Shown: piece by piece, positions 13,092-56,948 of the stretch | Position numbering within the stretch: position 1 is the stretch's first letter | Layout of the letters: each line of letters opens with the position of its first letter | From: Tolypothrix carrinoi HA7290-LM1 | GTDB lineage: Bacteria; Cyanobacteriota; Cyanobacteriia; Cyanobacteriales; Nostocaceae | Direction: 5' to 3' | Assembly (NCBI GenBank): GCA_019358935.1 | Contig: JAHHIK010000024.1 | Location: 1 to 64,000 of the forward strand | DNA length: 64,000 nt | Translations under genes and position numbers: made by a program | The notes under the pieces: generated by a model | What the model was told of the DNA's origin: nothing | The model's input: only the letters and a program-made list of their open reading frames with translations | Databases searched by the model: none

Positions 13092-13161
13092 AAAAGGTCA
13101 ACCCCGCCAACCGTGTATTACATGGAAATGTTTGATTTCAAAGGTACGTATCTCTGTTGTT

Positions 13162-20283: not shown

Positions 20284-20383
20284 CCCATCATGATATCTCA
20301 ATACATGAATATTGTAAATTGCTCAACTGCCCTCCTTTCCTCATCTGTCTATGGCAAATATTTGTTGGAGGACGTTTCACAAT

Positions 20384-21169: not shown

Positions 21170-21200
21170 CTATTTTTCCTCCAGGTGACTTTTGTTATAA

Positions 21201-23012: not shown

Positions 23013-23026
23013 ATTATTGAAAGTAT

Positions 23027-23746: not shown

Positions 23747-23754
23747 GGCATTAA

Positions 23755-24879: not shown

Positions 24880-24975
24880 TGCTTTAAAACTTGCGTTCGG
24901 GATTTCAAGAATAGGGGAAGGAATGGACTTCCCCTAGATTTTTTAATAAACAGAGAAAAACCCAATATTGGATTA

Positions 24976-34959: not shown

Positions 34960-35117
34960 TGTCACTGTAAGGATAAGTTGAGCAACTCTGAAGGCATAAG
35001 TTGAGCAATAGATTCCTTGAAACCCGATTAAACTCTTGTATAGCGTAAAAGTAGAAATAGAAGTTTTGAAAGCATAAGTTGAGCAAATGTTATATTTAGA
35101 AACTATAAGTTGAGCAA
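34960..35117 (+). repeat. tns-proximal transposon end with four putative TnsB-binding sites
   Basis: ATAAGTTGAGCAA at 34973, 34996, 35074 and 35105. Confidence 0.88.
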
Positions 35118-35212
35118 ACATTTTCAATATGAGCGCTCATAAATACATAACGTTGTGCTGTGATAAACAGTAGGAGGAACTCGGACTTAGACCCAGGATT
35201 AAAGAAAGCATT

Positions 35213-37960
35213 ATGCTCTCGAGCCAAGAGTTTAATAACTGGTGTCATACTCAACACCTCAGTCCAGCAGCGCAAGCAGTAATCTCAGAGATTCGCAGCA
35301 CCAACCCATCTCGTCGAGTAACAGGGGGTAGGAAAAATGTTTGTGGCTCTTACCCCAGTAGAAAAATGGGAGTAACAATCCAATTCGAGAGCCACCGTAA
35401 CGAATTAGCACGTATTTACGAACTAGAAAACGACCCCGAAGTACTCGAATATTACGACCAACCAAAGCCCATCGAGCTAGTTTACTCTTCAAAAAGTGGG
35501 CGTAAAAATAGACATCAATATACACCCGACTTCTTTATTATTCGGACCGATTGCGCTCTTTGGTGCGAATGCAAAACAGAACAAGAACTAAACAAATTAA
35601 CTAACATTAGTCCAAATCGATATTGCTTCCAGTCAGATGACAAATGGCATTGTCCCCCAGGAGAAAACTATGCTCGTCTTTATGGTTTCGACTTCCAAGT
35701 ATGGTCAGATGCTCAAATTAACTGGAACTTTCAACAAAACTTAATTTGGCTAGAAGATTACTTCGGTTACTCGTCAGGAATCATAAAAGAAACTGAAAAG
35801 TTTTTGATTGTAGACATTGTTAAAAATCATCCAGGGATAAGCCTTGCAAAGCTTTTAACAAATAAAGATATCAATCCCGATAGCGTTTATTGGTTAATTG
35901 CTTTTAATGAAGTTTACGTAGAACTTAATAAAGTAAAACTCTCGCAAGCTGAGACAGTACTCATATTTATTAACCAAGATGTTGCTTTATCTTATGAGTA
36001 TCTAAACAAGAGTGAATCACATCAAAAAACCAGTAATCAAACAGGATTGCAAATAGCTGTGGGTACTTGTATTTCCTGGGATGGAGAATCTTGGGAGATA
36101 GTAAATACAGGAACTGCAACTACTGGATTATTACGTGCAGATGGCAAGCTTATAGAGCTACCAAATACAGCATTTACAACGTTAATTGATAATTGTAAAA
36201 TAGCTGGAGTCGGTACAACAGAAAGCGAAAATATTAAAGCAGCATCAACCGGAATTCTACAACAGGCAACTTGTCTTGACATTATAGAAGCCAACCGTCG
36301 CTACAGTTTAATACAACCATACTTAGTGGATAATCCTCCAATATACCCAAGCAGTACAATCCGTCGTTGGCGCAGTCAGTACCAAAAAGCTTTATACATC
36401 TACGGAAATGGATATATAGGATTACTGCCTAATCACAATAGTAAAGGCAACCGTACAGCAAAAATTGATGATAAAACCAAAGAATTTATGCTCGAATTTA
36501 TACTAAAGCATTATGAAACACCCAAACAACGAAGAAAATTACGGGTTTATGAGTCATTTGTTTTAGCTTGTCAAAACCACGAACCGCCATTAAAACCTCC
36601 ATCCCGAATTACATTTTGCGCTTATATCAAAACTAGAAGCGGACATCATCAAACTAGAAAGCGTCTTGGTAATCGGGCAGCTATTCCAGAAGAGCCATTT
36701 TACTGGGAATTAGAGCAAACTACGGAAAGACATGGCAGTCGTCCCTTTGAGATTGTCCACATTGACCATACTCAACTTGATATTGAATTAGTCAGTTCCC
36801 TCGAATCTCTAACTAGTTGTCATATTGCCACAAACAAGGATTTTCATCAAAATTTAGGTCGTCCTTGGGCAACCTTTATGGTTGATGCATATAGCCGGAA
36901 AATTTTAGCCGTTTACCTCACTTTTGATGAGCCAAGTTATCGAACTTGTATGATGGTAATCCGCATAGTAGTGCAGCGATTTGGTCGATTTCCTCAAAAT
37001 ATAGTTGTAGATAACGGTGCAGAGTTTCACAGTCACTATTTTGAACAATTATTAGCATATTACACTTGCACTCTCAAATATCGACCACCAGCACATGCCA
37101 GGTTTGGTTCAATTGTTGAAAGATTATTTGGGACAGCCAATACGCAGTTTATTCATGAGTTACAAGGTAATACCCAAATTAAACGTCTTAACCGCCAAGT
37201 TACCTTATCAGTTAGTCCAGAACGATTAGCAATTTGGACATTAGAAGAACTATATTTAGCTATATGCGAATGGGCATATTCAGTTTATGACCAAAGATTG
37301 CATCCCACATTAGGTAAAAGCCCTCGCGATGCTTTTGTCTACGGACTTACCATTGGCGGAAGTCGTTTACATCGACGAGTCGAATATGACGAATTATTTA
37401 ACATCTTAACTCTACCTGCACCCGATGGGGGACAACGGAAAGTTCAACCCGGAAAAGGGGTAAAAATCCATAATATTTATTACTGGGCAGACATATTCCG
37501 CGACCCAGAAATTGAGAAATCAATGGTCTGGGTTCGGTATGACCCTTGGGATGCAGGAGTTGCCTATGCTTTAGCAGGAAAACAATGGGTAAAATGCATT
37601 TCTTCTTACTATCAATATTTCCAAGGACGTTCAGAAAAAGAAATTCGACTCATTAGCGCAGAACTTAATCAGCACAAACGTAATTATGAGAGAAACCGGA
37701 CAATAACGGATAAAGAATTAGTGAATTTTTTAAATTATCAACAAGCATCTGAAGGGCTTTTTCTTAAACAACGCTTGCATGATGCCGAACATTACAAAAT
37801 TCACAAAATTATTCAAAATCGTTCTGACGAACCACAGAAACTATATCCTACTTCTTCGGAAAAATCAAATGATATTGAGTTACAAGAATCTAATGAGACT
37901 GAGACAAATTGCCATTTCAACTCCGACACAGAAACCTTTGAATATTATGGAGAGTTTTAA
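35213..37960 (+). CDS. tnsAB: TnsA-TnsB fusion transposase
   Basis: TnsA motifs YPSRKMG..QFESH.E, YYDQP, YTPDF, ECK. DDE motifs VHIDHT, VDAYSR, VDNGAEF, VERLFGT. Confidence 0.92.
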   Translation: MLSSQEFNNWCHTQHLSPAAQAVISEIRSTNPSRRVTGGRKNVCGSYPSRKMGVTIQFESHRNELARIYELENDPEVLEYYDQPKPIELVYSSKSGRKNRHQYTPDFFIIRTDCALWCECKTEQELNKLTNISPNRYCFQSDDKWHCPPGENYARLYGFDFQVWSDAQINWNFQQNLIWLEDYFGYSSGIIKETEKFLIVDIVKNHPGISLAKLLTNKDINPDSVYWLIAFNEVYVELNKVKLSQAETVLIFINQDVALSYEYLNKSESHQKTSNQTGLQIAVGTCISWDGESWEIVNTGTATTGLLRADGKLIELPNTAFTTLIDNCKIAGVGTTESENIKAASTGILQQATCLDIIEANRRYSLIQPYLVDNPPIYPSSTIRRWRSQYQKALYIYGNGYIGLLPNHNSKGNRTAKIDDKTKEFMLEFILKHYETPKQRRKLRVYESFVLACQNHEPPLKPPSRITFCAYIKTRSGHHQTRKRLGNRAAIPEEPFYWELEQTTERHGSRPFEIVHIDHTQLDIELVSSLESLTSCHIATNKDFHQNLGRPWATFMVDAYSRKILAVYLTFDEPSYRTCMMVIRIVVQRFGRFPQNIVVDNGAEFHSHYFEQLLAYYTCTLKYRPPAHARFGSIVERLFGTANTQFIHELQGNTQIKRLNRQVTLSVSPERLAIWTLEELYLAICEWAYSVYDQRLHPTLGKSPRDAFVYGLTIGGSRLHRRVEYDELFNILTLPAPDGGQRKVQPGKGVKIHNIYYWADIFRDPEIEKSMVWVRYDPWDAGVAYALAGKQWVKCISSYYQYFQGRSEKEIRLISAELNQHKRNYERNRTITDKELVNFLNYQQASEGLFLKQRLHDAEHYKIHKIIQNRSDEPQKLYPTSSEKSNDIELQESNETETNCHFNSDTETFEYYGEF

Positions 37961-39069
37961 TGTCAACCGAAAAAAGCTTTCCTCGTGATTTACTCCAGCG
38001 ACCCCAACACGATAGAGTTGCTTATTTCCAGCAATATACAATGGCACATCCGAAATTACTACTAGCTTTTGAGAAACTAACACATGCAATTGATGACCCG
38101 GCTTCTGTTGCTTTAATCTTTTTATTTGGTCCAACTGGTGTTGGTAAAACAACTTTACTGCGTCGCATGACGACTAAGTTGCTAACTTCAAATATTGAAA
38201 AAATGGAACAGGATAAAGGCTTTATTCCTATTGCTGGGATTGAAGCTGCTACCCCTGAATTTAGTAACTTTAATTGGAAGGATTTTTACTTACGTGCTTT
38301 AACTGTTCTCCAAGACCCATGCCTGGAATTACCAGGTTACGGTCAAGTTACTAATTCAAAGTTGAAAACTTCGCTGGAAACTGCACTTAAATATCGTCAA
38401 CTTCAAGTTTTTTGCATTGATGAAACACAAAATCTAAGTAAAGTTGCCAGCGGACGTAAATTACGCGACCAAACTGATTGTATCAAATCGCTGGCTAACT
38501 TGACGGCTGTTAAGTTTGTACTGGCGGGTACTTATGATTTATTAATACTCCGAAATTTGAGTGCCCAACTGTGCCGACGTAGCCTGGATATCCATCTGGA
38601 ACGCTACAAAGCCGAAAATCCGGAGGATTTAAAAGCTTTCAGAGGTATTGTCCAAACCTTTCAACGCCATTTACCTCTTGAAGTTGAGCCGGATTTACTT
38701 AAACACTGGGATTTTTGCTACGAGCGCAGTTTTGGTTGTGTGGGTATTCTAAAAGATTGGCTATGCCGTGCGTTTTTTTGTGCATCTTCTCAAGGAGCTA
38801 AAACTCTGACTATTAAACACTTGCAGTTGTCTGCTTACTCTACTGAACAATGCATGATTATAGTCACTGAAACTAAACATGGAGAAAAGCAGCTTGAGTT
38901 AATAGAGGATAGTTCTGCTTTAAGAATTGCTTTAAGCTTAGAACATAATAATGATGCTTATGCTTCAGCTACTCATATTGCTACAGCTCCAAAAAAATCC
39001 CGTCGTGACAAAGTAGGCGATACTAAACCTCAGCGTCGTCCAGTTGGAGGAGGTCAAAATGCCAGTTGA
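37960..39069 (+). CDS. tnsC: TnsC/TniB AAA+ ATPase
   Basis: Walker A GPTGVGKT, Walker B FCIDETQ, LSAQLCRRS. Translationally coupled to tnsAB (TAATG overlap). Confidence 0.92.
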   Translation: MSTEKSFPRDLLQRPQHDRVAYFQQYTMAHPKLLLAFEKLTHAIDDPASVALIFLFGPTGVGKTTLLRRMTTKLLTSNIEKMEQDKGFIPIAGIEAATPEFSNFNWKDFYLRALTVLQDPCLELPGYGQVTNSKLKTSLETALKYRQLQVFCIDETQNLSKVASGRKLRDQTDCIKSLANLTAVKFVLAGTYDLLILRNLSAQLCRRSLDIHLERYKAENPEDLKAFRGIVQTFQRHLPLEVEPDLLKHWDFCYERSFGCVGILKDWLCRAFFCASSQGAKTLTIKHLQLSAYSTEQCMIIVTETKHGEKQLELIEDSSALRIALSLEHNNDAYASATHIATAPKKSRRDKVGDTKPQRRPVGGGQNAS

Positions 39070-39949
39070 ATATTTGACTAACTATGAGTCTTGGGATTTT
39101 GACACAAATGAACTTCCTCTTCGTAGTCCTCTTTACTCTCTTCTTCCTATCGGTATTGGTACACCCGCAGTTGAAAGTTTTACCAGTTACCTGACTCGCT
39201 TGGCGGCGGCTCATGGTGTTTCTGTTACTACTTTGATTCGCTATAAAATTGCACCATTATTTATCGAGAGCAGTATTGCAACAGATTTACTATCCGCCTA
39301 TATTATCAGAATACTTATGGATGCTTCGCCCAAAAAGCCTACAACGCTCTTGATTCAAACTGCTGGATTTTGGTTAGACCTAACTCAAAATGCTTCTAAG
39401 CTCGTCTGTGCTGTTAAAACATTGACTGGTAGGCAGGATATTCATTATACGTCGCTACTGTCAATGCAAGGGTGGCGGCTAAAGTTTAACAATATTTTTC
39501 ATTTCTCACAACGCTGGTGTCCTAGCTGCTATTCTGACTGGCGCCACGGCGGAAAGCCTATCTATCAACCTTTGTTATGGGCTTTGGAACCTGTAACTGT
39601 TTGCCCCCATCACCAACGTTACCTACAGTTGCGATGCTTTGATTGCAATGGTTTACAGCCATTTCTCGTTTTGGACAAAATTCAAGTTGGTTGTTGTTGT
39701 ATATGTGGTGCATGGCTAGGACAAATTTTAGAGTCGGAGGCTAATTTCAAGTTGCCCGACCTTGTTTGGGACTTGTGGTTTGCTCAAGTTCTGGGAAAAC
39801 TCCTGGCTGCGACACCAGAACTTGTTACAAATCCGACTAGAAAGGAAACTCGGTTTAGAGAGCGCCCAATATTTCATAGTCTAAATTGGTTTTTAAGGCA
39901 GTGTTATCAGATAGGAATCAATCCTGTTGAATATTTGAGTAATTTTTAA
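39059..39949 (+). CDS. tniQ: Short TniQ family target-selector protein
   Basis: ESFTSYLTRLAAAH and zinc ligands WCPSC, CPHH, CFDC, CCIC. GGAGG RBS before ATG 39059. About 296 aa, with no long TnsD-type C-terminal domain. Confidence 0.9.
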   Translation: MPVEYLTNYESWDFDTNELPLRSPLYSLLPIGIGTPAVESFTSYLTRLAAAHGVSVTTLIRYKIAPLFIESSIATDLLSAYIIRILMDASPKKPTTLLIQTAGFWLDLTQNASKLVCAVKTLTGRQDIHYTSLLSMQGWRLKFNNIFHFSQRWCPSCYSDWRHGGKPIYQPLLWALEPVTVCPHHQRYLQLRCFDCNGLQPFLVLDKIQVGCCCICGAWLGQILESEANFKLPDLVWDLWFAQVLGKLLAATPELVTNPTRKETRFRERPIFHSLNWFLRQCYQIGINPVEYLSNF

Positions 39950-40035
39950 ATGAAACTTGGGTGTATTTGAGTTCAACTCGCTTCGGCCTGAAGTCAGGGC
40001 GCAACATCCGTAGCGCTATACTTTTCTCCTCCTTC

Positions 40036-40116
40036 TTTGTAAGTATAAGGCTAGTTTATTCAAGCAGAAAGCATAAAGTAAGCAACAAGCATCTCTTAAG
40101 ATGCTTACAGTTAACA
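40036..40116. repeat. Degenerate relic copy of the transposon's tns-distal end
   Basis: TTTGTAAGTATAAG...GAAAGCATAAAGTAAGCAAC...ATGCTTACAGTTAACA is collinear with the real end TTTGTAAGCATAAG...GAAAGCATAAAGTGAGCAAC...ATCCTTACAGTGACA (40932-41007). Confidence 0.8.
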
Positions 40117-40160
40117 AATGGTTAAAAGTATCAGTAAGCTATGCCCCGAACGCCCTAAAA

Positions 40161-40194
40161 TATCTATACGAGTGTATCTCCATCAGTGTAGATA
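40161..40194 (+). promoter_or_regulatory. Inverted-repeat operator TATCTAYAC-N16-GTGTAGATA overlapping the cargo start codon
   Basis: TATCTATAC (40161-40169) and GTGTAGATA (40186-40194). Same architecture at 41051-41084. Confidence 0.7.
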
Positions 40195-40781
40195 TGGTGA
40201 AAATAGAGCGCGAGTCTATCAACTTCAAATTGCCAAAATCGTTATGTGACGGACTCAGAGCCGCTGCGGAACAACGCAACACTACCGCCACTGATTTGGT
40301 AATTCAAGGGTTGCACCATATTTTGGGGGATGTACCTGGTGTGGAGGCTAGTGTCGAAGTTCGTTTAGACCAACTTGAAGAAGAATTTTGGCTTCTCAAA
40401 CAAAACATTAATCTAACCTGCACCAACCCCGATCAAGAAAGTAGGTTAACTGCATTGGAGAATAAACTCGAAGCTATGAGTACTCGACTCGCTCAGTTTG
40501 AAGGGGCGATAACGCAACTCCAATATAGCGTCAATTCATCAAAATCCCGCAAATCGGGACACCCCTATCAATTTAGTTCCCAACCGCCACAACTCCAACC
40601 CCTTGATGAGAATAAACTAGCTTTCAGACTTAATACTACTGTAGCAACATTAACTGAAAAACGTACAACCCTCAGTCCCAAAGAGTTTGAATCTTGGACA
40701 AGAGACAAAGACAGTATTAGACGTGGATGGCAGTTCAACGATAAAGATGGTCTGTACCATGAAGTAAGCGCTTTCTTTTAG
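40194..40781 (+). CDS. RHH-coiled-coil-HTH-like DNA-binding protein (transposon cargo), paralogue of 41084..41659
   Basis: MVKIERESINFKLPKSLCDGLRAAA...TTATDLVIQGLHHILG is nearly identical to the N-terminus of the downstream gene. Shared C-terminal LA.RL...EFESW.R.KD...GW.FN...GLYH. Confidence 0.8.
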   Translation: MVKIERESINFKLPKSLCDGLRAAAEQRNTTATDLVIQGLHHILGDVPGVEASVEVRLDQLEEEFWLLKQNINLTCTNPDQESRLTALENKLEAMSTRLAQFEGAITQLQYSVNSSKSRKSGHPYQFSSQPPQLQPLDENKLAFRLNTTVATLTEKRTTLSPKEFESWTRDKDSIRRGWQFNDKDGLYHEVSAFF

Positions 40782-40931
40782 GAGTGAATGAGAATTGCTG
40801 GTGGTGACATACCCTCTCTGTTGCACCCAACATCTATTACATTACCCGAAGCGCTTCAGCAACACTGTAAAAAATGCATCCAATACCGAGCGAGTTCAAG
40901 AATTATCTATTGAGCGATTGGAAGCATTAGG

Positions 40932-41007
40932 TTTGTAAGCATAAGTTGAGCAAGTCTCTTTGAAAGCATAAAGTGAGCAACTTGCTCAACTTATCCTTAC
41001 AGTGACA
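40932..41007. repeat. tns-distal transposon end with three putative TnsB-binding sites
   Basis: ATAAGTTGAGCAA at 40941, ATAAAGTGAGCAA at 40968, inverted TTGCTCAACTTAT at 40982. Confidence 0.88.
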
Positions 41008-41050: not shown

Positions 41051-41084
41051 TATCTACACGAGCGTATATAACTGGGTGTAGATA
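41051..41084 (+). promoter_or_regulatory. Inverted-repeat operator TATCTACAC-N16-GTGTAGATA, 43 bp outside the transposon end
   Basis: Perfect 9-bp inverted repeat whose last base is the A of the ATG. Confidence 0.75.
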
Positions 41085-41822: not shown

Positions 41823-44800
41823 CTACGCTAATTCCATCTCTTTCCTTTTGCCTGATCCCCTGGAATTTGCTTCTAAGACAGGAGATTGTAGTTGGGCTGA
41901 TTTTGATGTCAGAATAATCATCTCTTGCAATTGCAGTGCCCCTGCATCTGAGAGGAGTAGGACTTCTTCTCCGGTATGAATATTGCCTTTGCAGATAGTT
42001 CGCTTGGATTCCGAACGCACAAAGAAATCACCATTGGGTTGCACGTAAGCAGTCCAACTGTTGCCAATTTTGAACTGTTTAGTTTCAGTATTATCAGGCT
42101 CTCTTTCTTGCCTGCGTTTGTACGTATTACTGACGGCTTCAAAGAGCAAATCTTGCATTTCTTTGCGCCAGTCTGAGCTAATGTTAGTCTGCGTGGTACT
42201 GTCTGTCTGGGTTTCGCTTTGGGCGTCTGGCAAGCGAATAGAATTAGGGTCAATATTGAGTACAACGGTAGCACCCAACGGTGACAATGAAGCTTGGAAT
42301 GTAGTGCCGATAGGTAGTTTAGGGGTATCAGGGGCGAAGGTTCCCAGATTTTTACCATCAATTTGAATAATGGGGATGCCATTGTAGCGGTAGAATTCTG
42401 GGTGCGATTCAGTCAGCTCAAAAGTGCCGACTTCTAGAGTGACTTTCTGCTTTTTCCATTTTTTATTAGCAAAGTCTTCATTCTTCAAGTCGTTGTATTT
42501 TATGCCTAGCACTTTGATTTCATCAAATTGAAACTGTTGTAGTTGATCTACAATTTCCTCCATGAATAAGTGGTAGGCGATCGCTCCTTTTCCCGGTTCA
42601 GTTCTCGATTCCACCCAGGCGCAATCAGCAGGTGGGACAATCATTACATTGTCCGGCATTTGAAGAGTGTCAATGTCGTTGTAGTTGTTGCCGTATTTAG
42701 CTTCTAGCTTTTCGATTTGTAATGGTGACAAGCTTTTTAAGGCAAACTCAACTAGCGGTAATCCTGGGTGAACTGTTGCCTCATATTCGATGCTTTTTTG
42801 GTCGAGGGATTCTTTCCATTCTTGAACTTTCTTTCCAAATGGAACTTGCAGGACATAGATATCTCGCGGGAGTGCCTCATGGAGTAACTCGTAGTCTGGT
42901 TCAAGGGAAAATGTCATTTTGAGCGTTTTGGCAATCTTTAGACATTCCTCTTTGTGGCTATCGATGTCAAGTTTGGTATGTTGCGTATGCCAAGTAGCAG
43001 CAGCGGCGCGAAAACGTTCTTCTTTTGTGGGGAATAACTCATCGATTTCGGCACGGTAGCTATCGTAGAGTTTCCCTAACTCTTCATTGAAAACGTCTTT
43101 GTCGTCTCCAATTCGTTGGGCGATCGCCGCAATATCTTGTTTAGATCGTTTTTTGAGTTCTTCAGCCCATTCGAGTTCATCTACGCCGAATGTCTCTTTC
43201 GGAAACAGATACCGAAATTCGTGGCGTTCTCGGTGTCGAATACGTGTCGCTTCCCAGTGGGGATTTACCGCTTCTCTTGGGATTACATTAATCGGGTTCG
43301 GTTCCTCAGCAGGCATAGGAAAAGTTTTGTAAAGTCGGTTGTCTTTTTTGAAGTCGAAGAAGTAACTTGGATGAGCTTCCGACCATTTTTTCGAGTCTGG
43401 TAGCAAGTTTTCCCCGTCGATTTCCTTGATATCCTCCAACCGTTCTGCACTTTTTTGGTAATCAACTTCAGGCTGTAATGCTATGAACAGGCGATTTAGC
43501 AATCTTGTTTTCTTGCGCTCAAACAGTCGGGGGTTTTCATCTTCATTCGGGACTGATGATTGGACTCTTCCAATTGTTGTGGCGACTAAACCAATTTTAT
43601 TCTGGGAACTGGCTGCGGCTATGCTTGACAAAGTTCTATATTTTTGCTTACCCTGAGCATCTTTGACTGCGGTGTAGGGAACTTTAGGGCGTTGTTTAAC
43701 TTCAGCATAGCGCCTGGGTTCTCCGGCGCGTAGAGTTTCAGCAGCAATCTGGGGTAGCATTTTAGATGGAGCAACTACCATTTGGTCGCCGTCAAAGTCA
43801 GCTTGGTGGTATTCTTCAGCGTCTTTTGGCTGCATGAAGACAACACCTTTGTATTTCATTAGTTCTAGTTTGTGAACATTTGTATAACGTCTGATGTTAT
43901 CGCTGGAGACAATTGGAAAGCGAGTGGTGATAATATCGCCTTCGCTTAGGTGAGGTACGCAGATTGTTCCTCTTTCCAAGTCTGTACATGGCATAGCCAT
44001 CCCAGAACTAAATTTGAAAGCTCCCTTGATTGCCAAGTCACACCAGCGATTGGCAACGTATTGTCGCATAGCATCAGCAACAAAGGGGCTGTCGATCAAA
44101 AGACCAAATTTATCGTTGCGTAGCAGAGTAACGAGCCGTAATTCTTGTTGTTCTTGATTTTTGTCAGTATTTTCACGTTCTAATGAGTCATCAACTGAGA
44201 GTGCAGCATATTCCCTGGCACGCTGTTGTTTCTTGTCGTACTCTTCAACAATGTGTTTAGCTAAAGCGAGGGGGTTGCGTTGGAGCTTGGCTAGTTTTTC
44301 GGCTTCTTTTCGAGTTGGTTCTACGAAGTCTTTCTTGAGAGCCTCTTCGCTATACCAAATGCTAAATTGCCAGCTGTTGTCATAGTCGATTACTTTAGCA
44401 TTACCCCGGTTGCCCAAAGCACTTCTGGGTAACTCATATTCGCCGCAAGGGATTAAATCAAGTAAAAGAGTTTTCTTAATCCCTTTAATTGAGGAGCGAT
44501 CCATAACAATATCAAACCCCTCTGCTTCTAAAGTGGCATTGGGTAGTAAAGTGCCTTTAGCCAAGAAACTAGTTAAGGATTGCTCCGGATTATCTGCCCA
44601 GTTTTCTAGCCAAGCAAAGCGAAATTGGAAGGGTCGGTTAGCTAAACCTCCCATGAGTTTAACAAGGCTAGGTGATACTTGTCCATGACAGTCTCCGGTT
44701 TTATATTTTTCGGCTTCAGCTTTCTCTTTGGGGTCTTTGCTGTTATAGTCCACAATTTTGATTCGTAGACCTTCAATTTGCTCTGCTCCCTTAAAGCAAT

Positions 44801-45158
44801 TACTGACCAACAGAGAACCGTAGCGACAGGCAGTATCTTCTTCAGTTTGGAAGATTTTGCCTATTTTGGCGCGTAGTTCATCATCTGCAAAGTAGTAGTT
44901 ATTGCCAGAACTAAAGGTGAGTTGTCGTTTGACACCATCGAAGGTTTTGGGTTTTAGATGTTTAGGGTCAGGGTTTTTCGAGTTAATTTTGACCAGTACG
45001 AGAGATTCGAGTTCTTCTGGCTCAAACATGAGTTCCAGAAGAGAGTTTTTGATAATTTCTGGTTCAGAAAGGAACCTTCCTTTACCGTTGTTATAAGAAC
45101 CGTCGAAAACTTTAATTTTGAGACCGATGTTTTGAGCGACTTCTGTTGTTGGTATCAT
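41823..45158 (-). CDS. Single-subunit two-barrel RNA-polymerase-like protein (YonO/cellular RdRP-related)
   Basis: Ordered motifs GDCHG..., PFQFR, AKGTL, DRSSIKG, then TRFPIV and HQADFDGD (DFDGD at 43785-43799). Confidence 0.75.
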   Translation of the reverse strand: MIPTTEVAQNIGLKIKVFDGSYNNGKGRFLSEPEIIKNSLLELMFEPEELESLVLVKINSKNPDPKHLKPKTFDGVKRQLTFSSGNNYYFADDELRAKIGKIFQTEEDTACRYGSLLVSNCFKGAEQIEGLRIKIVDYNSKDPKEKAEAEKYKTGDCHGQVSPSLVKLMGGLANRPFQFRFAWLENWADNPEQSLTSFLAKGTLLPNATLEAEGFDIVMDRSSIKGIKKTLLLDLIPCGEYELPRSALGNRGNAKVIDYDNSWQFSIWYSEEALKKDFVEPTRKEAEKLAKLQRNPLALAKHIVEEYDKKQQRAREYAALSVDDSLERENTDKNQEQQELRLVTLLRNDKFGLLIDSPFVADAMRQYVANRWCDLAIKGAFKFSSGMAMPCTDLERGTICVPHLSEGDIITTRFPIVSSDNIRRYTNVHKLELMKYKGVVFMQPKDAEEYHQADFDGDQMVVAPSKMLPQIAAETLRAGEPRRYAEVKQRPKVPYTAVKDAQGKQKYRTLSSIAAASSQNKIGLVATTIGRVQSSVPNEDENPRLFERKKTRLLNRLFIALQPEVDYQKSAERLEDIKEIDGENLLPDSKKWSEAHPSYFFDFKKDNRLYKTFPMPAEEPNPINVIPREAVNPHWEATRIRHRERHEFRYLFPKETFGVDELEWAEELKKRSKQDIAAIAQRIGDDKDVFNEELGKLYDSYRAEIDELFPTKEERFRAAAATWHTQHTKLDIDSHKEECLKIAKTLKMTFSLEPDYELLHEALPRDIYVLQVPFGKKVQEWKESLDQKSIEYEATVHPGLPLVEFALKSLSPLQIEKLEAKYGNNYNDIDTLQMPDNVMIVPPADCAWVESRTEPGKGAIAYHLFMEEIVDQLQQFQFDEIKVLGIKYNDLKNEDFANKKWKKQKVTLEVGTFELTESHPEFYRYNGIPIIQIDGKNLGTFAPDTPKLPIGTTFQASLSPLGATVVLNIDPNSIRLPDAQSETQTDSTTQTNISSDWRKEMQDLLFEAVSNTYKRRQEREPDNTETKQFKIGNSWTAYVQPNGDFFVRSESKRTICKGNIHTGEEVLLLSDAGALQLQEMIILTSKSAQLQSPVLEANSRGSGKRKEMELA

Positions 45159-47306: not shown

Positions 47307-48143
47307 TCACAGTGTTTGAATCGCTTTGAAGACGGACTCTTGGGTGAGGTAGAGCGATCGCATACTGGCACTTGCCGAATCGAAGTAAGTGGCGAAGCGT
47401 TTTAATTCCCCCGTTGTTAGTTGAATTAAATAATCAGTGGCAACTGCTGCTACTTGTTGGTTGATGCTCAAGCTTTGAGTATTGAGTAGCGCCATTTGTT
47501 CGCATGATAAATTGTTGTCCTGCAATTCCTCTGGTAGTGGAACCAAAAGTTCTGGATGTTGGATTGTTGGCGAGGGGATTTGGCTACAGCCAAGGGGTCC
47601 AAAGGTATAATCTTGCGGGGCATTAGATAGATTTGAACCTAATAAAACCTGTCCGCTACTTTTACTATTCCCACAGTCTAAATACCAGATTGAAGGAGCC
47701 TGATTAGAATTGTAATCGTTATGTTTCAGCACTTGTGAAAGTGACTCTCGCGCCGAAGCATTATCCACGCACCCAATAATAATTGACAGTGTTTTGTACC
47801 CTGCTTGTACCATTTTTGGGTGAAAGCGTTTGGTTATTGCTTTAATTTCCATCCCCCAGGCAATTGAATATCTTAGAGCTAATGTTTGGGCTTTGAGCAA
47901 GCCGATTTCTTTATAGCAGAAGCACTGCCTTAGTACATTAGCTTCTTCGACAACATCATGATCTACGAAAGTGACTTGCACCTCTTTACCCGTATTGCTT
48001 AAGCTACAAGCAAGTCGAACAACACTCGCAGCAAGCCAACTCCCAGTCCCTCCCATTCCAACGACCCAAAATTCAATGCGGGAGTGTTGTAAAAGAATTA
48101 GCTTTGATGCGTTAACAAAATCATAGTAATGGTTCATGTTCAT
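47307..48143 (-). CDS. ThiF/E1-like adenylyltransferase (PRTRC-type)
   Basis: VVGMGGTGSW, VDHDVVEEANVLRQ, KAQTLA, IIGCVDNASAR, YLDCGN...GQVLLG, LSCEQ. Start reassigned to 48143. Confidence 0.92.
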   Translation of the reverse strand: MNMNHYYDFVNASKLILLQHSRIEFWVVGMGGTGSWLAASVVRLACSLSNTGKEVQVTFVDHDVVEEANVLRQCFCYKEIGLLKAQTLALRYSIAWGMEIKAITKRFHPKMVQAGYKTLSIIIGCVDNASARESLSQVLKHNDYNSNQAPSIWYLDCGNSKSSGQVLLGSNLSNAPQDYTFGPLGCSQIPSPTIQHPELLVPLPEELQDNNLSCEQMALLNTQSLSINQQVAAVATDYLIQLTTGELKRFATYFDSASASMRSLYLTQESVFKAIQTL

Positions 48144-48840
48144 CCAAAGAATTATCCAGAATTGGAGAATTAGTATTCGAGTAAAATTTGTAGGCAATTG
48201 CTGAGTCACAAGAGATGTCGTGCATAAACTCAGGTAGTTCAAAGACGTTGCTTGCAGGGATATCCCAGTAGTTTCTGAAAATTCCCACTCTGACTCGGAT
48301 TTCAGGTTCTTTGGTGTTGACTCGCCCCAAAACAGCATAGATGCGGAACCCTCCTTCGTCAGCATCATCGGTTGTTGAGAAGAAGGCTTTCATTGCATGA
48401 TGAGAATGCACGTCCACAGTAGCGTTGTGGAACGAAGAATCGCCGTCAAATCTGGTTGGTTGACAGCTTGCGCTATGTTGAGTTTGGTCTGGTATTTCCA
48501 AGCGCCAATTGTTCTGTTCATAGTGAATGTGAAAAGCAATTTCTACTGCACCTTGAGCGTTACAAGCGAGGCAACTGCGTCGCCACATTTCTAGCAATAT
48601 TGTTTTAGGAATCTTATTTGGTTTGAGTTGCAAATAAGGTTCAATAATTGGCAATCCTCGGATATTTTCTCTGTAGTATTCCACGGGCATCAATACTTCT
48701 AATCCTGGGCGGATGCCTCTAATGAATACTCCATTCCCAGCAAAAAGATATTCAAACAGAGAACTGGTATGAGATGGTAAAGGGAGTTGACGGACAATTT
48801 TGTAGTCAACTATTTCCTCAAAATTAACTAGCTGAATCAT
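48121..48840 (-). CDS. JAB/MPN metallopeptidase (PRTRC protein A-like)
   Basis: YLFAGNGVF, VEIAF and DVHSHHAMKAFFSTTDDADE (HSH-x7-S-xx-D JAMM motif). Confidence 0.9.
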   Translation of the reverse strand: MIQLVNFEEIVDYKIVRQLPLPSHTSSLFEYLFAGNGVFIRGIRPGLEVLMPVEYYRENIRGLPIIEPYLQLKPNKIPKTILLEMWRRSCLACNAQGAVEIAFHIHYEQNNWRLEIPDQTQHSASCQPTRFDGDSSFHNATVDVHSHHAMKAFFSTTDDADEGGFRIYAVLGRVNTKEPEIRVRVGIFRNYWDIPASNVFELPEFMHDISCDSAIAYKFYSNTNSPILDNSLDEHEPLL

Positions 48841-49534
48841 CGGCAATTTCTGAAAATAAAGTTGCAATGGTAGCCTTTTTATCTAAAGGCACAAGGTCTT
48901 TGAGCGGGTAAGTGCAGTTTTTCTGCTGATGCAAAGCTAAAAGTTGATCGCGGACATCATTTGTATGGTGCTTCGATTTGCCATTACTTAAATGGGAATT
49001 AAACGGACTAGAAATGAAAAGATTCCAAGCTTGATTAATGGATTGGGCAGAAGCAGATGGGGGTTGATTTTTACCCCAGCAAACTTTTCCCCACGGCGTG
49101 TACACATTTGGCAGTGGGGCATGGAAAAGGCTGGCATCAGGGTCGAATATCTTAATTTTGGTTGCCCATAACCAGTAGGTAAAATTTTTGCCGACAAATA
49201 TCATTGCAGGCATTGGAATTTGAACTTGCCCTAGTTCGTCACAGTCAAGTAGTGTTCTTTGTGGCGGGACGAATTTAACTACCCATTCCCCAGAGTTGCT
49301 AGTACAAGTGCGAACTACACCTTCACCTATCCAACCAGAGTCGATAGGTTCATTGCTAAAGGCGATGCGTAGTGCCGTTGGTGAGAGACATTTGTAGTGT
49401 GATTTTTCTCCAGATTGGTAATGCAGGATGTAAGTGCCATCAAGGATTAGTAGCTCGGCTTTGATTGCAGATAAGCTTCTGGGAGGGTCTTGTAAAAGCT
49501 CCCTGATTATTTCAGCAGTGATGATGTGTTCCAT
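48824..49534 (-). CDS. Prokaryotic E2 family D protein (PRTRC protein B-like)
   Basis: IPMPAMIF, LFHAPLPNVY...GKVCWG with putative catalytic Cys, FISSPFNSH. Confidence 0.85.
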   Translation of the reverse strand: MEHIITAEIIRELLQDPPRSLSAIKAELLILDGTYILHYQSGEKSHYKCLSPTALRIAFSNEPIDSGWIGEGVVRTCTSNSGEWVVKFVPPQRTLLDCDELGQVQIPMPAMIFVGKNFTYWLWATKIKIFDPDASLFHAPLPNVYTPWGKVCWGKNQPPSASAQSINQAWNLFISSPFNSHLSNGKSKHHTNDVRDQLLALHQQKNCTYPLKDLVPLDKKATIATLFSEIADDSAS

Positions 49535-50307
49535 ATTCCCAAAACTAGTTCAAAGTGGTTTATAAGGTCTTGCTCCAGCCATTCGATAAGGTGATAAACT
49601 TGGTCGAGGATTACCTTGGCATTTTGCCATTCCCTCTGTAAAAATTTGATGTTTTCAATTGTCCAAAGTAATGAAACTTCTGGTTCATTTGTTGCACAAT
49701 AATCCAGCCAAATGTTATTGCTTTCATAGTCAAGAAGTTGCAATGCCAAGGGTAAGAATTTTAAAGGTTTGGCAGCACGACAGGATAGTTTTTTTAACAA
49801 TTGAGCGTTAATATCTTTGGGGTGTGCGATCGCCTGCCATGACACCCCAAACTCGCACTCATACCAATCAGTGCCTTCCGCTGACTCAAGCCAGTAATAT
49901 CCTTCTGTGCTTAAAGGAAGAAGAATTTGCCATCCAGACCGCAATGATTCAATGTCCTCGTGTCCGATCCAATCGCAGCCCATTGGCATAAGTGGAATTT
50001 GGTAGAAGCGTTCTTCATAGGCGTTTTCTATTTGTAACTCTGAGATGGGAAATAGGTTTTGGCTGACTAGATATAAAAACTCGATTTCAAGGGAACTGTG
50101 ACTGTCAGGGTTATTTAGGTCTTTGGGGTAGGGTGCAGCTGTACTGTTCTTAAATTCATCTGGGAATAAGTGTTGATATAACGCCAGCAGTCGGTAGCTA
50201 TTGAAACGGTTTTCTAAATAGTCAACCGCTTGGTTAGTGTCAAGAATTCTTTGGCACTGTCGCAAGCGGTGAATCGCTGATAACGCATTTAAAAGAGAAG
50301 GTAACAT
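49507..50307 (-). CDS. Cassette-associated hypothetical protein (position of PRTRC protein F)
   Basis: Overlapping, co-oriented ORF between the Ubl and E2 genes. Confidence 0.6.
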   Translation of the reverse strand: MLPSLLNALSAIHRLRQCQRILDTNQAVDYLENRFNSYRLLALYQHLFPDEFKNSTAAPYPKDLNNPDSHSSLEIEFLYLVSQNLFPISELQIENAYEERFYQIPLMPMGCDWIGHEDIESLRSGWQILLPLSTEGYYWLESAEGTDWYECEFGVSWQAIAHPKDINAQLLKKLSCRAAKPLKFLPLALQLLDYESNNIWLDYCATNEPEVSLLWTIENIKFLQREWQNAKVILDQVYHLIEWLEQDLINHFELVLGIWNTSSLLK

Positions 50308-50309
50308 TG

Positions 50310-50732
50310 CTAGAACCCTTCTGGAATTGCGCCTGGTGATGGTAGAATTTTCTCTAGCAAGCGCAATGTTTTCCGAATTACATTAGAGTATTCGGTTCCC
50401 TGTTTAATGGCTTCTTCAATTTCATTGGAGAGGGCGTTCATACTTTCGTAATCAAGTTCTCCTATCAATTCCATATGCTGAACTTTTCGGCACATGCTTA
50501 TTGCTGGATTAACTTCTTCAGGTGAGGTGATTAAAACCTCTAGAGGTGACGCACCTTTTGGACCCGCTCGTTTTATAATTTTGATAATTTCTCCGGGCTT
50601 CCTCTCAATCACAGAATTTGCCATGTCGGGATAAAAAGGTGTAAAAAGGTCGCGTAGTAATTGGTCGTTGGCAGCAATGTTTTCATCTACAGGATGTTGT
50701 TGTCCCTCAAAAGACACTATTACTTTAACCAT
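50310..50732 (-). CDS. Ubiquitin-like protein (PRTRC protein C-like) with C-terminal extension
   Basis: LRDLFTPFYPDMANSVIE...IKIIKRAGPKG followed by ~80 extra residues. Confidence 0.7.
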   Translation of the reverse strand: MVKVIVSFEGQQHPVDENIAANDQLLRDLFTPFYPDMANSVIERKPGEIIKIIKRAGPKGASPLEVLITSPEEVNPAISMCRKVQHMELIGELDYESMNALSNEIEEAIKQGTEYSNVIRKTLRLLEKILPSPGAIPEGF

Positions 50733-50760
50733 AGTAGAATTATTGTGTTTAAATGTTGAA

Positions 50761-51477
50761 CTAGACCCCAAACAGCGTTAGCTGTGTATTTTTGCTGGTA
50801 GGGTTTTCTTCTTTGGTTTTGATAGGGAGAGAAGCAGCGGGTTGTTTATTTTTGGTTTTCTTAAGAGCCGCGTAGGAAATAGCCCGTCGCACTTGTCGGT
50901 TGGGAAAATCTGCTACTAATTCGTTAAGAAGGTCAGTGATAGCAGGTGGTAATTCGCCCATTTCATAAAGTCGCAGCATTTTATTAACAGGAAAGTCGCC
51001 GTGGCTACTGGCTGCCAGCATCACCTTTCTACCTTCGGGAGAGTTGTCATCAGGTAGAAAGGTAATGGTTAGCTTTACTGTGCATTTTTCAAAGATGTAC
51101 GGTTCTAATTGTTCTTCTTTTGAGTTTGTTTCAGACTCGAAGTTTTTGGATTCTGAGTCGTCATCATTCAATTCGTCCACTTCGTCATTTAATAAAGCTG
51201 CATCTGGCGCGTCAACTATTGGTTTTTGTTCATCTGGCTGTGAATCATCTGAAGAGTTGTCGTTAAGTTCATCATTTTTGGACGCTGGTTGGAGAAGTGC
51301 CAAGTAATCAGACGCACCTGAAGACCAGCGATCGCGCTCAAAAAGAAGTCCTAATTCTTGGAACCGTTCTTCTGTTGTTTTATGCTTTTGAGAACGATTG
51401 GGGTAAGTTTTGAGAGTAGCAGGGCTAATTGAAAGTTGAAGCAGTGAAACAGCTTGTTCTGGAGTTAGCCAGTTCAT
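50761..51477 (-). CDS. Acidic hypothetical protein (PRTRC protein E-like), first gene of the cassette
   Basis: Acidic linker, VKLTITFLP segment and QLTLF C-terminal motif. Confidence 0.55.
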   Translation of the reverse strand: MNWLTPEQAVSLLQLSISPATLKTYPNRSQKHKTTEERFQELGLLFERDRWSSGASDYLALLQPASKNDELNDNSSDDSQPDEQKPIVDAPDAALLNDEVDELNDDDSESKNFESETNSKEEQLEPYIFEKCTVKLTITFLPDDNSPEGRKVMLAASSHGDFPVNKMLRLYEMGELPPAITDLLNELVADFPNRQVRRAISYAALKKTKNKQPAASLPIKTKEENPTSKNTQLTLFGV

Positions 51478-52223: not shown

Positions 52224-52832
52224 TTACTTCACTGCGGAGACTTTTTTTTTTCCATTACGTTTTTGATGGTTATCTTGAACGTCTTGGATGTTTTTCGGAA
52301 TTATTCCGTACTCGACTTTTCGCTTGCGTTCTATATGCGTACCGTCTACGGGTATGCCTTTTTTCCAATCAGCGATGATTCTCTTTTTGTCAGGAGTAAC
52401 CACTTCTTTTCGGTTGATGTACTCTTGGGGTAATTCCTCCGTAGGAATCAGTACTTCACAACTAGGCGGGTTTTCTTTGATAGTAATGTGGCGGGATTTG
52501 CCCACTAATTTATCTGGTAAAATTCCAGTGGAGTGGAAGTACAGTAGGGTAGAATCCAAGGAAAGTCGCCAGCGTTGCAAGCGATCAAGTGCCGTTTTAT
52601 GAATTTCTACTAAATGTTCAAGGCGTGCTTTGATCCCAACTATTTCAGCATCCAGCTGCAAAGCTAGCTCGGCTTGGGTATCAGTTGATGTTTCTTGGTT
52701 TTTATGGTTTTCCCAGAGTGCTTTGAGAATAGCTTCCTCTTCTTCTGGAGTTTGGGCGCTTTCTAACTGTGTCCAAAGTTCAACAGCTTCAAATGAATAT
52801 TTGGCTAAGGTTGCTTGAGCTAAGTAAGACAT
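52224..52832 (-). CDS. Siphovirus Gp157-family protein
   Basis: Coiled coil, then ITIKENPPSCEV...ELPQEY...PDKKRIIADWKKGIPVDGTHI. Confidence 0.85.
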   Translation of the reverse strand: MSYLAQATLAKYSFEAVELWTQLESAQTPEEEEAILKALWENHKNQETSTDTQAELALQLDAEIVGIKARLEHLVEIHKTALDRLQRWRLSLDSTLLYFHSTGILPDKLVGKSRHITIKENPPSCEVLIPTEELPQEYINRKEVVTPDKKRIIADWKKGIPVDGTHIERKRKVEYGIIPKNIQDVQDNHQKRNGKKKVSAVK

Positions 52833-52834
52833 TT

Positions 52835-53008
52835 TTACCACCTTCCGCAGCTATGTTTGTAGTCCCATTCGGCTTCAATTTGGTTGATGATAACCATAGT
52901 TTCTGAATCAAGTTTTTCTTCAGATGACATGGGAATTGGTAGGATATTAATGGTCGTCTGATGTTCAAATGTGGATAACTTTGGTTTTGTAACTCGTTTT
53001 GGCATCAT
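52835..53008 (-). CDS. Small hypothetical protein (57 aa) coupled to gp157
   Basis: MMPKRVTKPKLSTFEHQ...EAEWDYKHSCGRW*; the stop lies 2 nt before the gp157 ATG. Confidence 0.55.
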   Translation of the reverse strand: MMPKRVTKPKLSTFEHQTTINILPIPMSSEEKLDSETMVIINQIEAEWDYKHSCGRW

Positions 53009-54860: not shown

Positions 54861-56948
54861 TTAATTCAAAAGGCTTGCATTTATGTCCAAGTAGCCGCGA
54901 CGAGCTAGTTCCGCTCTTATATGTGGGTGGTTTTTTAGCTCAGGGTCAATTGCAAGTATTGAGATTGCGGCAGTCCGTGCGATCGCCAGTATTTCCTCAT
55001 CTTCTAACAGATTCGCCAAAACCAAATTTGACAGCCCAGATTGGCGAGTTCCCAACAATTCACCTTCTCCACGCAGCCGCATATCCATTTCAGAAATAAA
55101 AAAGCCATCTTGCGACTGTTCCAGCACAGCGAGACGACTACGCGCTTCTGCTGTTTTACTGCCATTTATCAGTAGACAGTAGGATTGGTGGGAACCGCGA
55201 CCGACGCGCCCCCGCAGTTGATGCAACTGGGATAAGCCAAAACGCTCGGCATTTTCAATCAGCATCACTGTCGCATTGGGAACATCCACTCCCACTTCAA
55301 CAACCGTAGTAGAAACGAGAATTTGAGTTTGGTTGTCGCGGAAAGCTGCAAGCGCCTCATCCTTCTGGGCTGGAGTCATGCGTCCGTGCAGTAGACCCAC
55401 TTTAAATTCGGGGAAGATTTTTTCCGATAGACGTTGATGCTCCTCAATAGCTGAACGCACATTCAGCTTTTCTGATTCTTCAATTAGGGGCAACACAATA
55501 TAGGCTTGATGTCCGAATGGCACTTCGCGGCGGATTAGGTCGTATGCACGAGTGCTTTTGGTCAAAACTTTGGTGCGGATTGGAGAACGTCCTGGTGGCA
55601 ACTCATCAATTTGACTGACATCCAAATCCCCATGCAACGTCAGCGCCAGTGTTCGAGGAATCGGCGTTGCCGTCATTGTTAGCACATGGGGTTGTTTACC
55701 TTTTTGCTGCAACTGCATCCGCTGCTGTACGCCAAACCTGTGCTGCTCGTCAATTACTACCAAACCCAGCTTATTGAAATTCACCTTGTCTTGAATCAGG
55801 GCATGAGTACCTACCAACAGCGGTAGTTCACCACTTTCAAGCTGGGCTTGTATGCATGAGCGTTTTGCAGTTTTCGTCGAACCCGTGAGCAGTTCGACGG
55901 GCAAGTGCATTTTGTTGAACCACGCATTTATCTTACGATAGTGCTGTTCTGCCAGCACCTCAGTGGGAGCCATCAGCGCCGCCTGGTAGCCAGATTGAAT
56001 GACGGTGAGTATTGCAACTACTGCTACTACAGTTTTACCTGCACCCACATCCCCCTGCACCAATCGGTTCATCGGCGTGGGCGATTGCAAGTCATTGAGA
56101 ATATCGTTGATGACTCGCTGTTGTGCTACTGTCAGATCGAAGGGCAATTGCGAATAAAATTGTTTAATTAGCGAACCAGTAGGAGCGATTTTCGAGATGG
56201 ATGCTCGTGCTTTGAAAAGGTGGCGGCGTTGAAGTAGCGACAGTTGGAGGTAGAAAAATTCATCAAAGACTAATCGGCGACGCGCAGCTGCCAGGGTTTT
56301 GCTGTTAGGGGGAAAGTGGATGTTAGCGATCGCCTTTTTTAACCTAATCAATCCATATTGCTGACGCACATACGCAGGCAAGGGGTCTTTTAGTTGATTA
56401 ATAACAGTTAAAGCAGTCTGGATGGCATTTTGAATTAGCTCCAACGTCACCCCTTTAGTTAAAGCGTAAATGGGGATAATTGAAGAAGACTTAGCTTTGA
56501 TGTCTGCTAACTCGATTACACTGAGTTCTGGATTATTTAAGGTTTTGCCCAAGTACGAGTCATCTTTAACTATTCCAAATACAGCAACGAGTCGAGTAGT
56601 GGAGTAAAGTTTTGATTGCTCACAACGCCATCGTTGCGATTGGTAATAAGGATGGTTATAAAAACGTTTACAAGTAATAGAACCTGTTTTGTCTTTGATT
56701 GTCCAAGTTTGGATTGTTAATTTTGGGTTTTTGGCAGGGCTGATGATTTCATGTTTTTTGATTATACCGATGATTGTAACGTTGTCACCTACTTTTAAAT
56801 TGGCAATTCTGACTCTGCGGTATTTTATATAGTCGCGGGGGTAGTAAAATAGTAGGTCTAGGATAGTATAAATTCCCAGGTTTTTAAGAAGTTTGCTGTT
56901 AGTTGGACTGATACCTGGTAAATTATGCAGGGGCTGGAATAAACTCAT
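54861..56948 (-). CDS. recG: ATP-dependent DNA helicase RecG (plasmid copy)
   Basis: DLLFYYPRDY, QGDVGAGKT, DEQHRFG, MTATPIPRTL, QLHQLRGRVGRG. Confidence 0.96.
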   Translation of the reverse strand: MSLFQPLHNLPGISPTNSKLLKNLGIYTILDLLFYYPRDYIKYRRVRIANLKVGDNVTIIGIIKKHEIISPAKNPKLTIQTWTIKDKTGSITCKRFYNHPYYQSQRWRCEQSKLYSTTRLVAVFGIVKDDSYLGKTLNNPELSVIELADIKAKSSSIIPIYALTKGVTLELIQNAIQTALTVINQLKDPLPAYVRQQYGLIRLKKAIANIHFPPNSKTLAAARRRLVFDEFFYLQLSLLQRRHLFKARASISKIAPTGSLIKQFYSQLPFDLTVAQQRVINDILNDLQSPTPMNRLVQGDVGAGKTVVAVVAILTVIQSGYQAALMAPTEVLAEQHYRKINAWFNKMHLPVELLTGSTKTAKRSCIQAQLESGELPLLVGTHALIQDKVNFNKLGLVVIDEQHRFGVQQRMQLQQKGKQPHVLTMTATPIPRTLALTLHGDLDVSQIDELPPGRSPIRTKVLTKSTRAYDLIRREVPFGHQAYIVLPLIEESEKLNVRSAIEEHQRLSEKIFPEFKVGLLHGRMTPAQKDEALAAFRDNQTQILVSTTVVEVGVDVPNATVMLIENAERFGLSQLHQLRGRVGRGSHQSYCLLINGSKTAEARSRLAVLEQSQDGFFISEMDMRLRGEGELLGTRQSGLSNLVLANLLEDEEILAIARTAAISILAIDPELKNHPHIRAELARRGYLDINASLLN

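Follow-up and report, generated by a model that had tools for sequence, protein, structure and literature searches.

The gene at positions 41823 to 45158 on the minus strand of the window analysed here, which covers the opening 64 kb of a contig of 79,954 bp from the cyanobacterium Tolypothrix carrinoi HA7290-LM1 (JAHHIK010000024.1), encodes a single-chain, two-barrel RNA polymerase-like protein of 1111 aa (P0001). As judged from its sequence it is a real and intact member of the predicted cyanobacterial family resembling YonO and RNA-dependent RNA polymerases (RdRP), and the constant partner of this polymerase among its relatives is a conjugation backbone. The identification itself is not new, the family having been a prediction since 2010. 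Added by the present analysis are a relaxase-like C-terminal tail, a split between clades and a shared upstream site, which sharpen the hypothesis and render it testable. The polymerase may be a DNA-dependent RNA polymerase (RNAP) that is delivered by the type IV secretion system (T4SS) and primes or transcribes incoming single-stranded DNA (ssDNA), a reading that is preferred here but held tentatively.

The open reading frame (ORF), read from 45158 to 41823, comprises 1111 codons free of internal stops. The six motifs listed in a preliminary description of the window were all located in the order claimed (GDCHG at residue 155, FQFR at 177, KGTL at 201, SSIKG at 222, TRFP at 412 and ADFDGD at 453). 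An alignment of 79 homologs revealed that D156, Q178, R180, K225, R413, P415, D454, D456 and D458 are invariant, with K201 conserved in at least 90%. In an alignment of 89 close and distant members, D454, D456 and D458 were present in 88 of 89 rows with one gap, P415 in 88, K201 and K225 in 85, Q178 and R180 in 83, D156 in 82 and R413 in 76. The conservation of the catalytic residues in both alignments indicates that the six motifs are not due to chance. The second barrel contains both the DxDxD triad and the R-x-P loop, while D156, Q178, R180, K201 and K225 of the first barrel fit D709, Q736, R738, K743 and K767 of QDE-1, a mapping based on motif order and not on residue-level superposition (PMC2919709, PMC1750930; here and below, statements on cited papers refer to their accessible portions). 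The R-X-P loop arginine of QDE-1 binds the 2'-OH (PMC9508822), and the match of R413-x-P415 to this loop points to an RNA product. With residues 1-640 as the query, 136 of 8000 candidates were recovered as homologs, with 43-97% identity among the 120 matches listed, and the polymerase is related to the uncharacterised PHROG 34895 (E 3.7e-26). No match was obtained in an NCBIfam scan of the protein or an Rfam scan of the 64-kb window, and PDB sequence searches returned nothing relevant.

The AlphaFold2 model, obtained with a 79-row alignment, had a mean pLDDT of 88.7 and a pTM of 0.81. Two domains with a double-psi beta-barrel (DPBB) fold around DFDGD, the subject of a refuting test set beforehand, were both present in the model. 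The first, at approximately residues 125-252 (44403..44786, minus strand), carries D156, Q178, R180, K201 and K225 and was assigned by conservation and by its match to an expansin DPBB (Z 6.5, rmsd 3.3, 102 residues aligned). The second, at approximately residues 381-466 (43761..44018, minus strand), carries R413-F-P415 and D454-F-D456-G-D458 and was likewise assigned by conservation and by its match to a designed DPBB (Z 8.6, rmsd 1.9, 76 aligned). The model is thus predicted to have the two-barrel fold of a polymerase. Foldseek ranked maize RDR2 (E 4e-17) and QDE-1 (6e-16) highest, followed by gp62 and gp64 of Thermus phages (2e-10 and 7e-10), with multisubunit RNAP chains far lower at 1e-4 or weaker. 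Structural alignment of the model with VIA-align gave Z 21.3 and rmsd 7.5 over 594 residues for RDR2, Z 21.3 and rmsd 5.9 over 514 residues for gp64, Z 20.8 for gp62, and Z 16.8 and rmsd 8.2 over 613 residues for QDE-1, the alignments with RDR2, gp64 and QDE-1 spanning model residues 6-878. Among the proteins named for comparison in the preliminary description, QDE-1 was therefore one of the closest folds, together with RDR2 and gp64/gp62, and multisubunit RNAP was not.

The likeness to QDE-1 and RDR2 (PF05183), which extends to a shared motif order, raises the question of an RNA-templated polymerase, or of a defence or counter-defence effector making double-stranded or signalling RNA. The best structural matches are RdRPs of fungal and plant RNA interference (RNAi), a weak match to the Pfam RdRP family was obtained (E 5.8e-4), defence-type cargo gathers beside the polymerase, and long family members carry NADAR and SLOG domains. 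This explanation is nevertheless very unlikely. The Pfam score of 19.1 bits is below the gathering threshold of 23.8, the polymerase had no PADLOC match, the cargo varies by locus whereas the transfer genes are constant, and no Argonaute- or Dicer-like gene was detected among the 48 ORFs of the window that were scanned. The window polymerase also differs from QDE-1 and RDR2 in having only 12-14% identity with them, in lacking their N-terminal 370-480 residues, and in possessing two extra C-terminal domains, a tail and a bacterial conjugation context.

Cyanobacterial YonO-like proteins were described as one of five families for which experiments were called for (Ruprich-Robert and Thuriaux 2010, PMC2919709), and RNase H fusions in the cyanobacterial versions and a possible role as primase were noted later, citing Iyer and Aravind 2011 (PMC3417536). 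The statement that the family had been predicted computationally on cyanobacterial mobile elements is borne out by this literature of 2010-2012. The window polymerase shares with the described family the single chain, eight near-invariant two-barrel residues, the location on cyanobacterial mobile elements and, in some members, the RNase H fusions for which a primase role was suggested; the accessible portions of those papers are silent on a link with the MPF-C T4SS, on a tail of relaxase type and on the split into a T4SS-linked and a non-conjugative clade. In the literature searched, which covers few subscription papers, no experiment on the cyanobacterial family was found. Ninety-four PLSDB plasmid records match the polymerase, and all 60 matches listed are cyanobacterial. 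The distribution is sporadic, with a match in 29 of 221 genomes of a sample of the phylum. Six of twelve scanned long members are fused to RNase H-like, SLOG or NADAR domains. The RNase H-like domain, RVT_3, was present in three of the twelve (P0259, P0224 and a 3147-aa paralog encoded in the same genome as the window), and a Pfam scan of the window's own polymerase revealed no such fusion. The 3147-aa paralog (G000:C96:5816-15259, L202) consists of a polymerase core and an RNase H-like domain (E 1.6e-8), and a relaxase-like gene is located just upstream of it.

The conserved surroundings of the polymerase proved to be a conjugation backbone, a context that the preliminary description had not stressed. 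In the window a VirB4/TraC-like conjugation ATPase (25876..29094, minus strand; Pfam, NCBIfam and PLSDB matches) adjoins the rest of a cyanobacterial T4SS cluster (20384..25863, minus strand; Pfam match and relatives) that includes TrbI/VirB10 at 21201-23012, the other genes of which would, from their position, be VirB6/VirB8/VirB9. The first gene of the transfer cluster is a conserved gene of 752 aa (29789..32047, minus strand; relatives and tail tests) with a relaxase-like tail, the protein having no Pfam, NCBIfam or PHROG match. Beyond the window the contig encodes a MobA/VirD2-like relaxase (67875-70205) with a NikA-like mobC, and a close VirD4 is on another contig (C91). The minus strand is shared by the relaxase, primase-like, RecG, Gp157, PRTRC, polymerase and T4SS genes. 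Frequent upstream neighbours of the polymerase are the ThiF family of the PRTRC cassette (47307..51477, minus strand; ThiF/E1, JAB and E2-like genes plus three more, by Pfam and NCBIfam), found in 23 of 47 related loci, and a Gp157-family gene (52224..52841, minus strand; Pfam and relatives).

The link was evaluated in PLSDB, where the polymerase matched 94 records and VirB4 134, positions and identities being taken from the 60 matches listed for each; the plasmid comparisons that follow hold among those matches. All 16 plasmids with a polymerase of the close clade keep relaxase or T4SS genes, and 11 of 11 plasmids with a close VirB4 (>48% identity) carry a close polymerase. VirB4 lies 8-49 kb from the polymerase on 12 of the 16. 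Of the remaining four, the three whose sequences were inspected proved to be copies of this backbone damaged by transposons, with VirB4 or relaxase genes broken and transposases around them, one of them with the polymerase truncated too; the fourth is a sister strain's plasmid with the same match. Where both positions were listed (42 plasmids), the two genes were separated by no more than 35 kb in 32, with 12.8 expected. The identities of the polymerase and VirB4 to the window's genes were correlated (Spearman 0.88, n = 35, kin not being independent). Among 47 GTDB loci, 28 have the first transfer gene, and 25 have VirB4, after the polymerase and in the same orientation; 19 loci lack the first transfer gene there, 13 of which end within approximately 5 kb of the polymerase, the rest having variable cargo. 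The recurring gene order is relaxase, Gp157, in some cases PRTRC, polymerase and T4SS, all co-oriented. The gap between the polymerase and the 752-aa gene is an insertion hot spot in relatives (L003-L049), occupied in most of them by differing large genes and small pairs.

In the 221 genomes the polymerase was found in 29, VirB4 in 30 and both in 20. Five of the nine genomes with only the polymerase have a short clade of approximately 880 aa followed by an HU gene, and the other four have a 1115-aa relative of the short clade, a 670-aa form or broken copies. A quick, midpoint-rooted tree with 39 rows unlabelled separated nine T4SS-linked members from seven HU-adjacent members with SH-aLRT 100. 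The constant partner of the polymerase is the conjugation backbone. The short clade (L082-L086, L090, L102, L103) has no tail, is followed by an HU gene, and is located on non-conjugative elements with many small genes of unknown function. The possibility that these HU-adjacent elements are phage-plasmids was considered and dropped, capsid, portal and terminase genes being absent from the annotated stretches of two plasmids (approximately 70 of 77 kb of one and all of the 52 kb of the other), and the elements are for this reason called only non-conjugative.

The preliminary description had proposed for the polymerase either host-independent transcription or RNA priming during replication or transfer, and had considered that RecG and an AEP primase nearby would suit the handling of R-loops or primers. 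The RecG helicase gene is present as claimed (54861..56948, minus strand; NCBIfam), while the label of AEP primase was not upheld for the neighbouring 432-aa primase-like gene (57240..58538, minus strand; PHROG and relatives), for which Pfam and NCBIfam gave nothing and the helicase/primase matches in PHROG were weak. A primer-maker for vegetative plasmid replication, working on R-loops with these two proteins, would be in accord with their location 10-13 kb upstream on the same strand, with the RNase H fusions within the family, with the short clade being on non-mobilizable plasmids, and with RecG following the relaxase in four of nine related elements read upstream. The primase-like gene was in none of those nine, however, and among the 16 close-clade plasmids RecG was on two, the primase-like gene on five and both on one, so that both are accessory to the backbone and not constant partners. 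The position of the polymerase follows the transfer genes instead, a plasmid with a truncated polymerase persists, and three copies are present in the 6.8-Mb contig of another genome (G127), each 27-94 kb from a VirB4. Vegetative replication is accordingly a very unlikely role with little support, while priming during transfer, another of the roles named earlier, is one option of the preferred reading. On the 6.8-Mb contig (G127:C1) the three polymerase genes map to about 429 kb, 2.66 Mb and 3.22 Mb, and the loci are probably integrated conjugative elements.

A 14-base site, AAWTATCCACTTGG, was found approximately 100 bases upstream of the polymerase in Nostoc/Anabaena-type elements. In five Nostocaceae-type genomes it had 11 matches, of which five are at the polymerase (one of these at a contig end and judged from flanking sequence), four at mobC and two inside other genes, and the reversed control had no matches. 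A related palindrome precedes both the polymerase and mobC in G005:C42. The lineages in which polymerase and mobC share a site are L154-L164, and L057 and L122. Neither the window nor four other elements yielded a site of this kind. The sequences suggest that in some lineages the polymerase is co-regulated with the relaxosome, and AAWTATCCACTTGG could be an operator or a promoter.

The site is relevant to the principal competing explanation, namely that the polymerase acts in the donor as a plasmid-specific enzyme transcribing mob and tra genes from promoters of its own, as do YonO for the late genes of SPbeta and gp64 for the early genes of P23-45. These two phage proteins are demonstrated DNA-dependent RNAPs (PMC5467207, PMC10770324). 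The full body of the model aligns with gp64 and gp62 at the Z scores given above, and the occurrence of AAWTATCCACTTGG at both the polymerase and mobC against a reversed control of zero, with the palindrome in G005:C42, is in keeping with such promoters. On the other hand, the five polymerase matches are circular because the site was derived from regions upstream of the polymerase, none was seen before the T4SS cluster, and a palindromic site fits a repressor equally well. Further, no repeated promoter-like motif was found within the window, and the relaxase-like tail and its absence from the non-conjugative clade would be left unexplained. Donor transcription is thus considered unlikely. The comparison with the phage enzymes P23-45 gp64, P74-26 gp62 and Bacillus SPbeta YonO shows the same single-chain, two-barrel architecture of DNA-dependent RNAPs of mobile elements, with the difference that those are phage enzymes for promoter-directed transcription whereas the window polymerase is approximately 500 residues longer than gp64 and has no phage neighbours; YonO is likened here without direct structural comparison. 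The neighbours of the window polymerase are relaxase, T4SS, ParM-like and PRTRC genes, and it is not phage- or prophage-encoded. No phage homologs were found in INPHARED with two queries or in IMG/VR with a short-clade query, these searches being insensitive.

The polymerase ends in a polar, basic tail of low model confidence (41826..41885, minus strand; pLDDT and tail comparisons) that is a candidate T4SS export signal. In T4SS-linked polymerases a polar basic stretch is followed by a short acidic-hydrophobic end, as in cyanobacterial relaxases. A hand-made pattern describing such tails was present in 16 of 26 relaxases, in 24 of 60 close polymerases and in 8 of 44 distant long members, compared with none of 33 short members, none of 7 HU-adjacent members and 22 of 4069 genome ORFs. 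The only ORFs of at least 100 aa on the contig that matched were the relaxase, the 752-aa gene and the polymerase. The tails of 25 relaxases, and no others, were then used to train a model; with the 4069 genome ORFs as background, scores above the 99th percentile were reached by 27 of 60 close-clade, 9 of 44 distant long, 0 of 33 short and 0 of 7 HU-adjacent polymerases, and 15 of 25 relaxases passed when left out one at a time. We know of no cyanobacterial T4SS export signal for comparison. The tail of the 752-aa protein is the strongest relaxase-like tail on the contig, and from its sequence that protein is a candidate for a second exported protein.

Conjugative elements send primases along with the single strand (PMC5512222), and on circular ssDNA QDE-1 begins RNA chains at internal positions, leaving hybrids of RNA and DNA (PMC2950127). 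That an exported polymerase is the most likely reading follows from the R-x-P loop, this ssDNA activity of QDE-1, the transferred primases, the fusions of long members, the genomic position and the tail. The RNase H-like, SLOG and NADAR fusions of long members resemble the accumulation of extra domains in transferred polyvalent proteins (PMC5512222). In the proposed mechanism the polymerase, as part of the conjugation module of the element, would leave through the T4SS with the relaxase-bound strand and, in the recipient, would begin RNA synthesis on the single-stranded DNA arriving there. By analogy with the transferred primases TraC and Sog, these RNAs might prime second-strand synthesis, a specific outcome that taken alone is rather doubtful; that they are instead the first plasmid transcripts, by analogy with phage virion polymerases, is distinctly less probable, and priming is ranked ahead of early transcription. 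The activity, template, export and place of action of the polymerase are what we infer.

Several points weigh against this reading. YonO and gp64, the bacterial relatives that have been characterised, serve in transcription (PMC5467207, PMC10770324). Ten of the 30 VirB4-bearing genomes had no polymerase match and VirB4 is in more plasmids than the polymerase (134 and 94 in PLSDB), the gene being dispensable for many such systems. The polymerase is intact on two plasmids with a broken VirB4, and one plasmid with 80% identity in VirB4 has only 43% in the polymerase, so the two do not always travel together; moreover, related plasmids are not independent samples. Concerning the tail, the hand-made pattern was written after polymerase tails had been seen, the signal is largely one of composition with the last five residues alone passing in 10 of 60, and the tail of the window polymerase ranks 83rd of 4069, the 98th percentile. 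T4SS signals have no general consensus, though basic C-terminal signals are documented for some substrates (PMC10025392). Given the composition-driven signal, the rank of the window tail and the lack of a consensus, the tail is suggestive of an export signal and is not proof of one.

The working analogy for a transferred polymerase is with TraC of RP4, SogL of R64 and the polyvalent proteins, each a large mobile-element protein encoded beside transfer genes. TraC and SogL are carried to the recipient and prime the incoming strand, the likeness proposed here for the polymerase. They differ in having a Toprim or PrimPol catalytic fold in place of two barrels, and transfer has been shown for them whereas it is only proposed for the polymerase. 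No two-barrel polymerase is among the transferred proteins described in the accessible portions of PMC5512222. The virion RNAPs gp66 of phi14:2, a crAss-like phage, and gp96 of P23-45 are likewise two-barrel enzymes delivered with a genome (Z 8.9 and 13.3), with the difference that a phage particle delivers them onto double-stranded DNA as opposed to T4SS delivery onto a single strand. It is possible, and is advanced here with some doubt, that the mating channel of cyanobacterial conjugative elements injects the element's own two-barrel RNAP, a bacterial structural relative of RNAi enzymes, to prime or transcribe the incoming strand. If so, the polymerase would be to conjugation what virion polymerases are to phages, conjugation would have a third primase chemistry, and the shared tail would be the first export signal for the unstudied cyanobacterial class of T4SS. 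A survey of 2014 reported cyanobacterial conjugation to be without experimental study at that date (PMC4027160). An exported polymerase would also be a new kind of conjugation cargo and would lend support to the proposed origin of RNAi polymerases from primase-like enzymes belonging to selfish elements. Being 1111 aa long, free of large fused domains and confidently modelled, the window polymerase is a practical member to purify, and its tail and conserved residues are direct targets for mutants.

C-terminal to the polymerase body, the model and family comparison revealed a beta-rich accessory domain at residues 872-976 (42231..42545, minus strand), common to long family members and often in two copies, and a small alpha/beta domain at residues 993-1092 (41883..42182, minus strand) found mainly in the close clade. 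Residues 872-976 had no Pfam or PDB sequence match. A HIRAN identity, considered because of a resemblance, was not supported when the domain, which folded poorly on its own, was compared with PF08797-type profiles (hhalign probability 0.2%, which reversed controls equalled). The best Z in a fold search with the C-terminal domains was 4.7, from a poor single-sequence model (pLDDT 39), and two ESM Atlas look-ups gave no usable match. Residues 1091-1111 of the model have pLDDT < 50.

The earlier designation of the element as a plasmid is likely to be right, with the reservation that the contig is unclosed, without terminal overlap, and that relatives also occur within a 6.8-Mb contig of G127. The contig revealed no replication gene and, being unclosed, could also belong to an integrated element. 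Among the matches listed, the window VirB4 is closest to Oscillatoria nigro-viridis-type plasmids (80%) and the polymerase to Nostoc-type plasmids (63%, versus 43% in the Oscillatoria nigro-viridis type); the different nearest plasmids suggest exchange of modules.

A Tn7-like transposon (34960..41007, plus strand; Pfam and repeats) between the polymerase and the transfer cluster is cargo outside the system. It encodes a fused TnsA/TnsB of 915 aa, TnsC and TniQ, has a terminal inverted repeat of 26 bases without mismatches and a target duplication of 5 bases, and is absent from a 97%-identical relative (L003). Its gene at 40101-40781 is a paralog of the gene at 41084-41659 just outside the transposon end. 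Immediately upstream of the polymerase, but on the other strand, a HipA-like kinase and its partner (45617-47295) match PDC-M03A/B, which PADLOC lists as a candidate defence system (E 1e-115 and 3e-86). A second NikA-like gene with a ParR-like gene (32105-33625) precedes the T4SS cluster, and the two resemble the mobC/parR pair near the relaxase. Elsewhere in the window are two NTPase-WD40 repeat proteins and several insertion elements (IS630, IS1182, a split TnpB and a Tn3 remnant), located by Pfam, NCBIfam and repeats at 1745-5335, 59135-63871, 10295-11315, 12449-15142 and 18879-20301.

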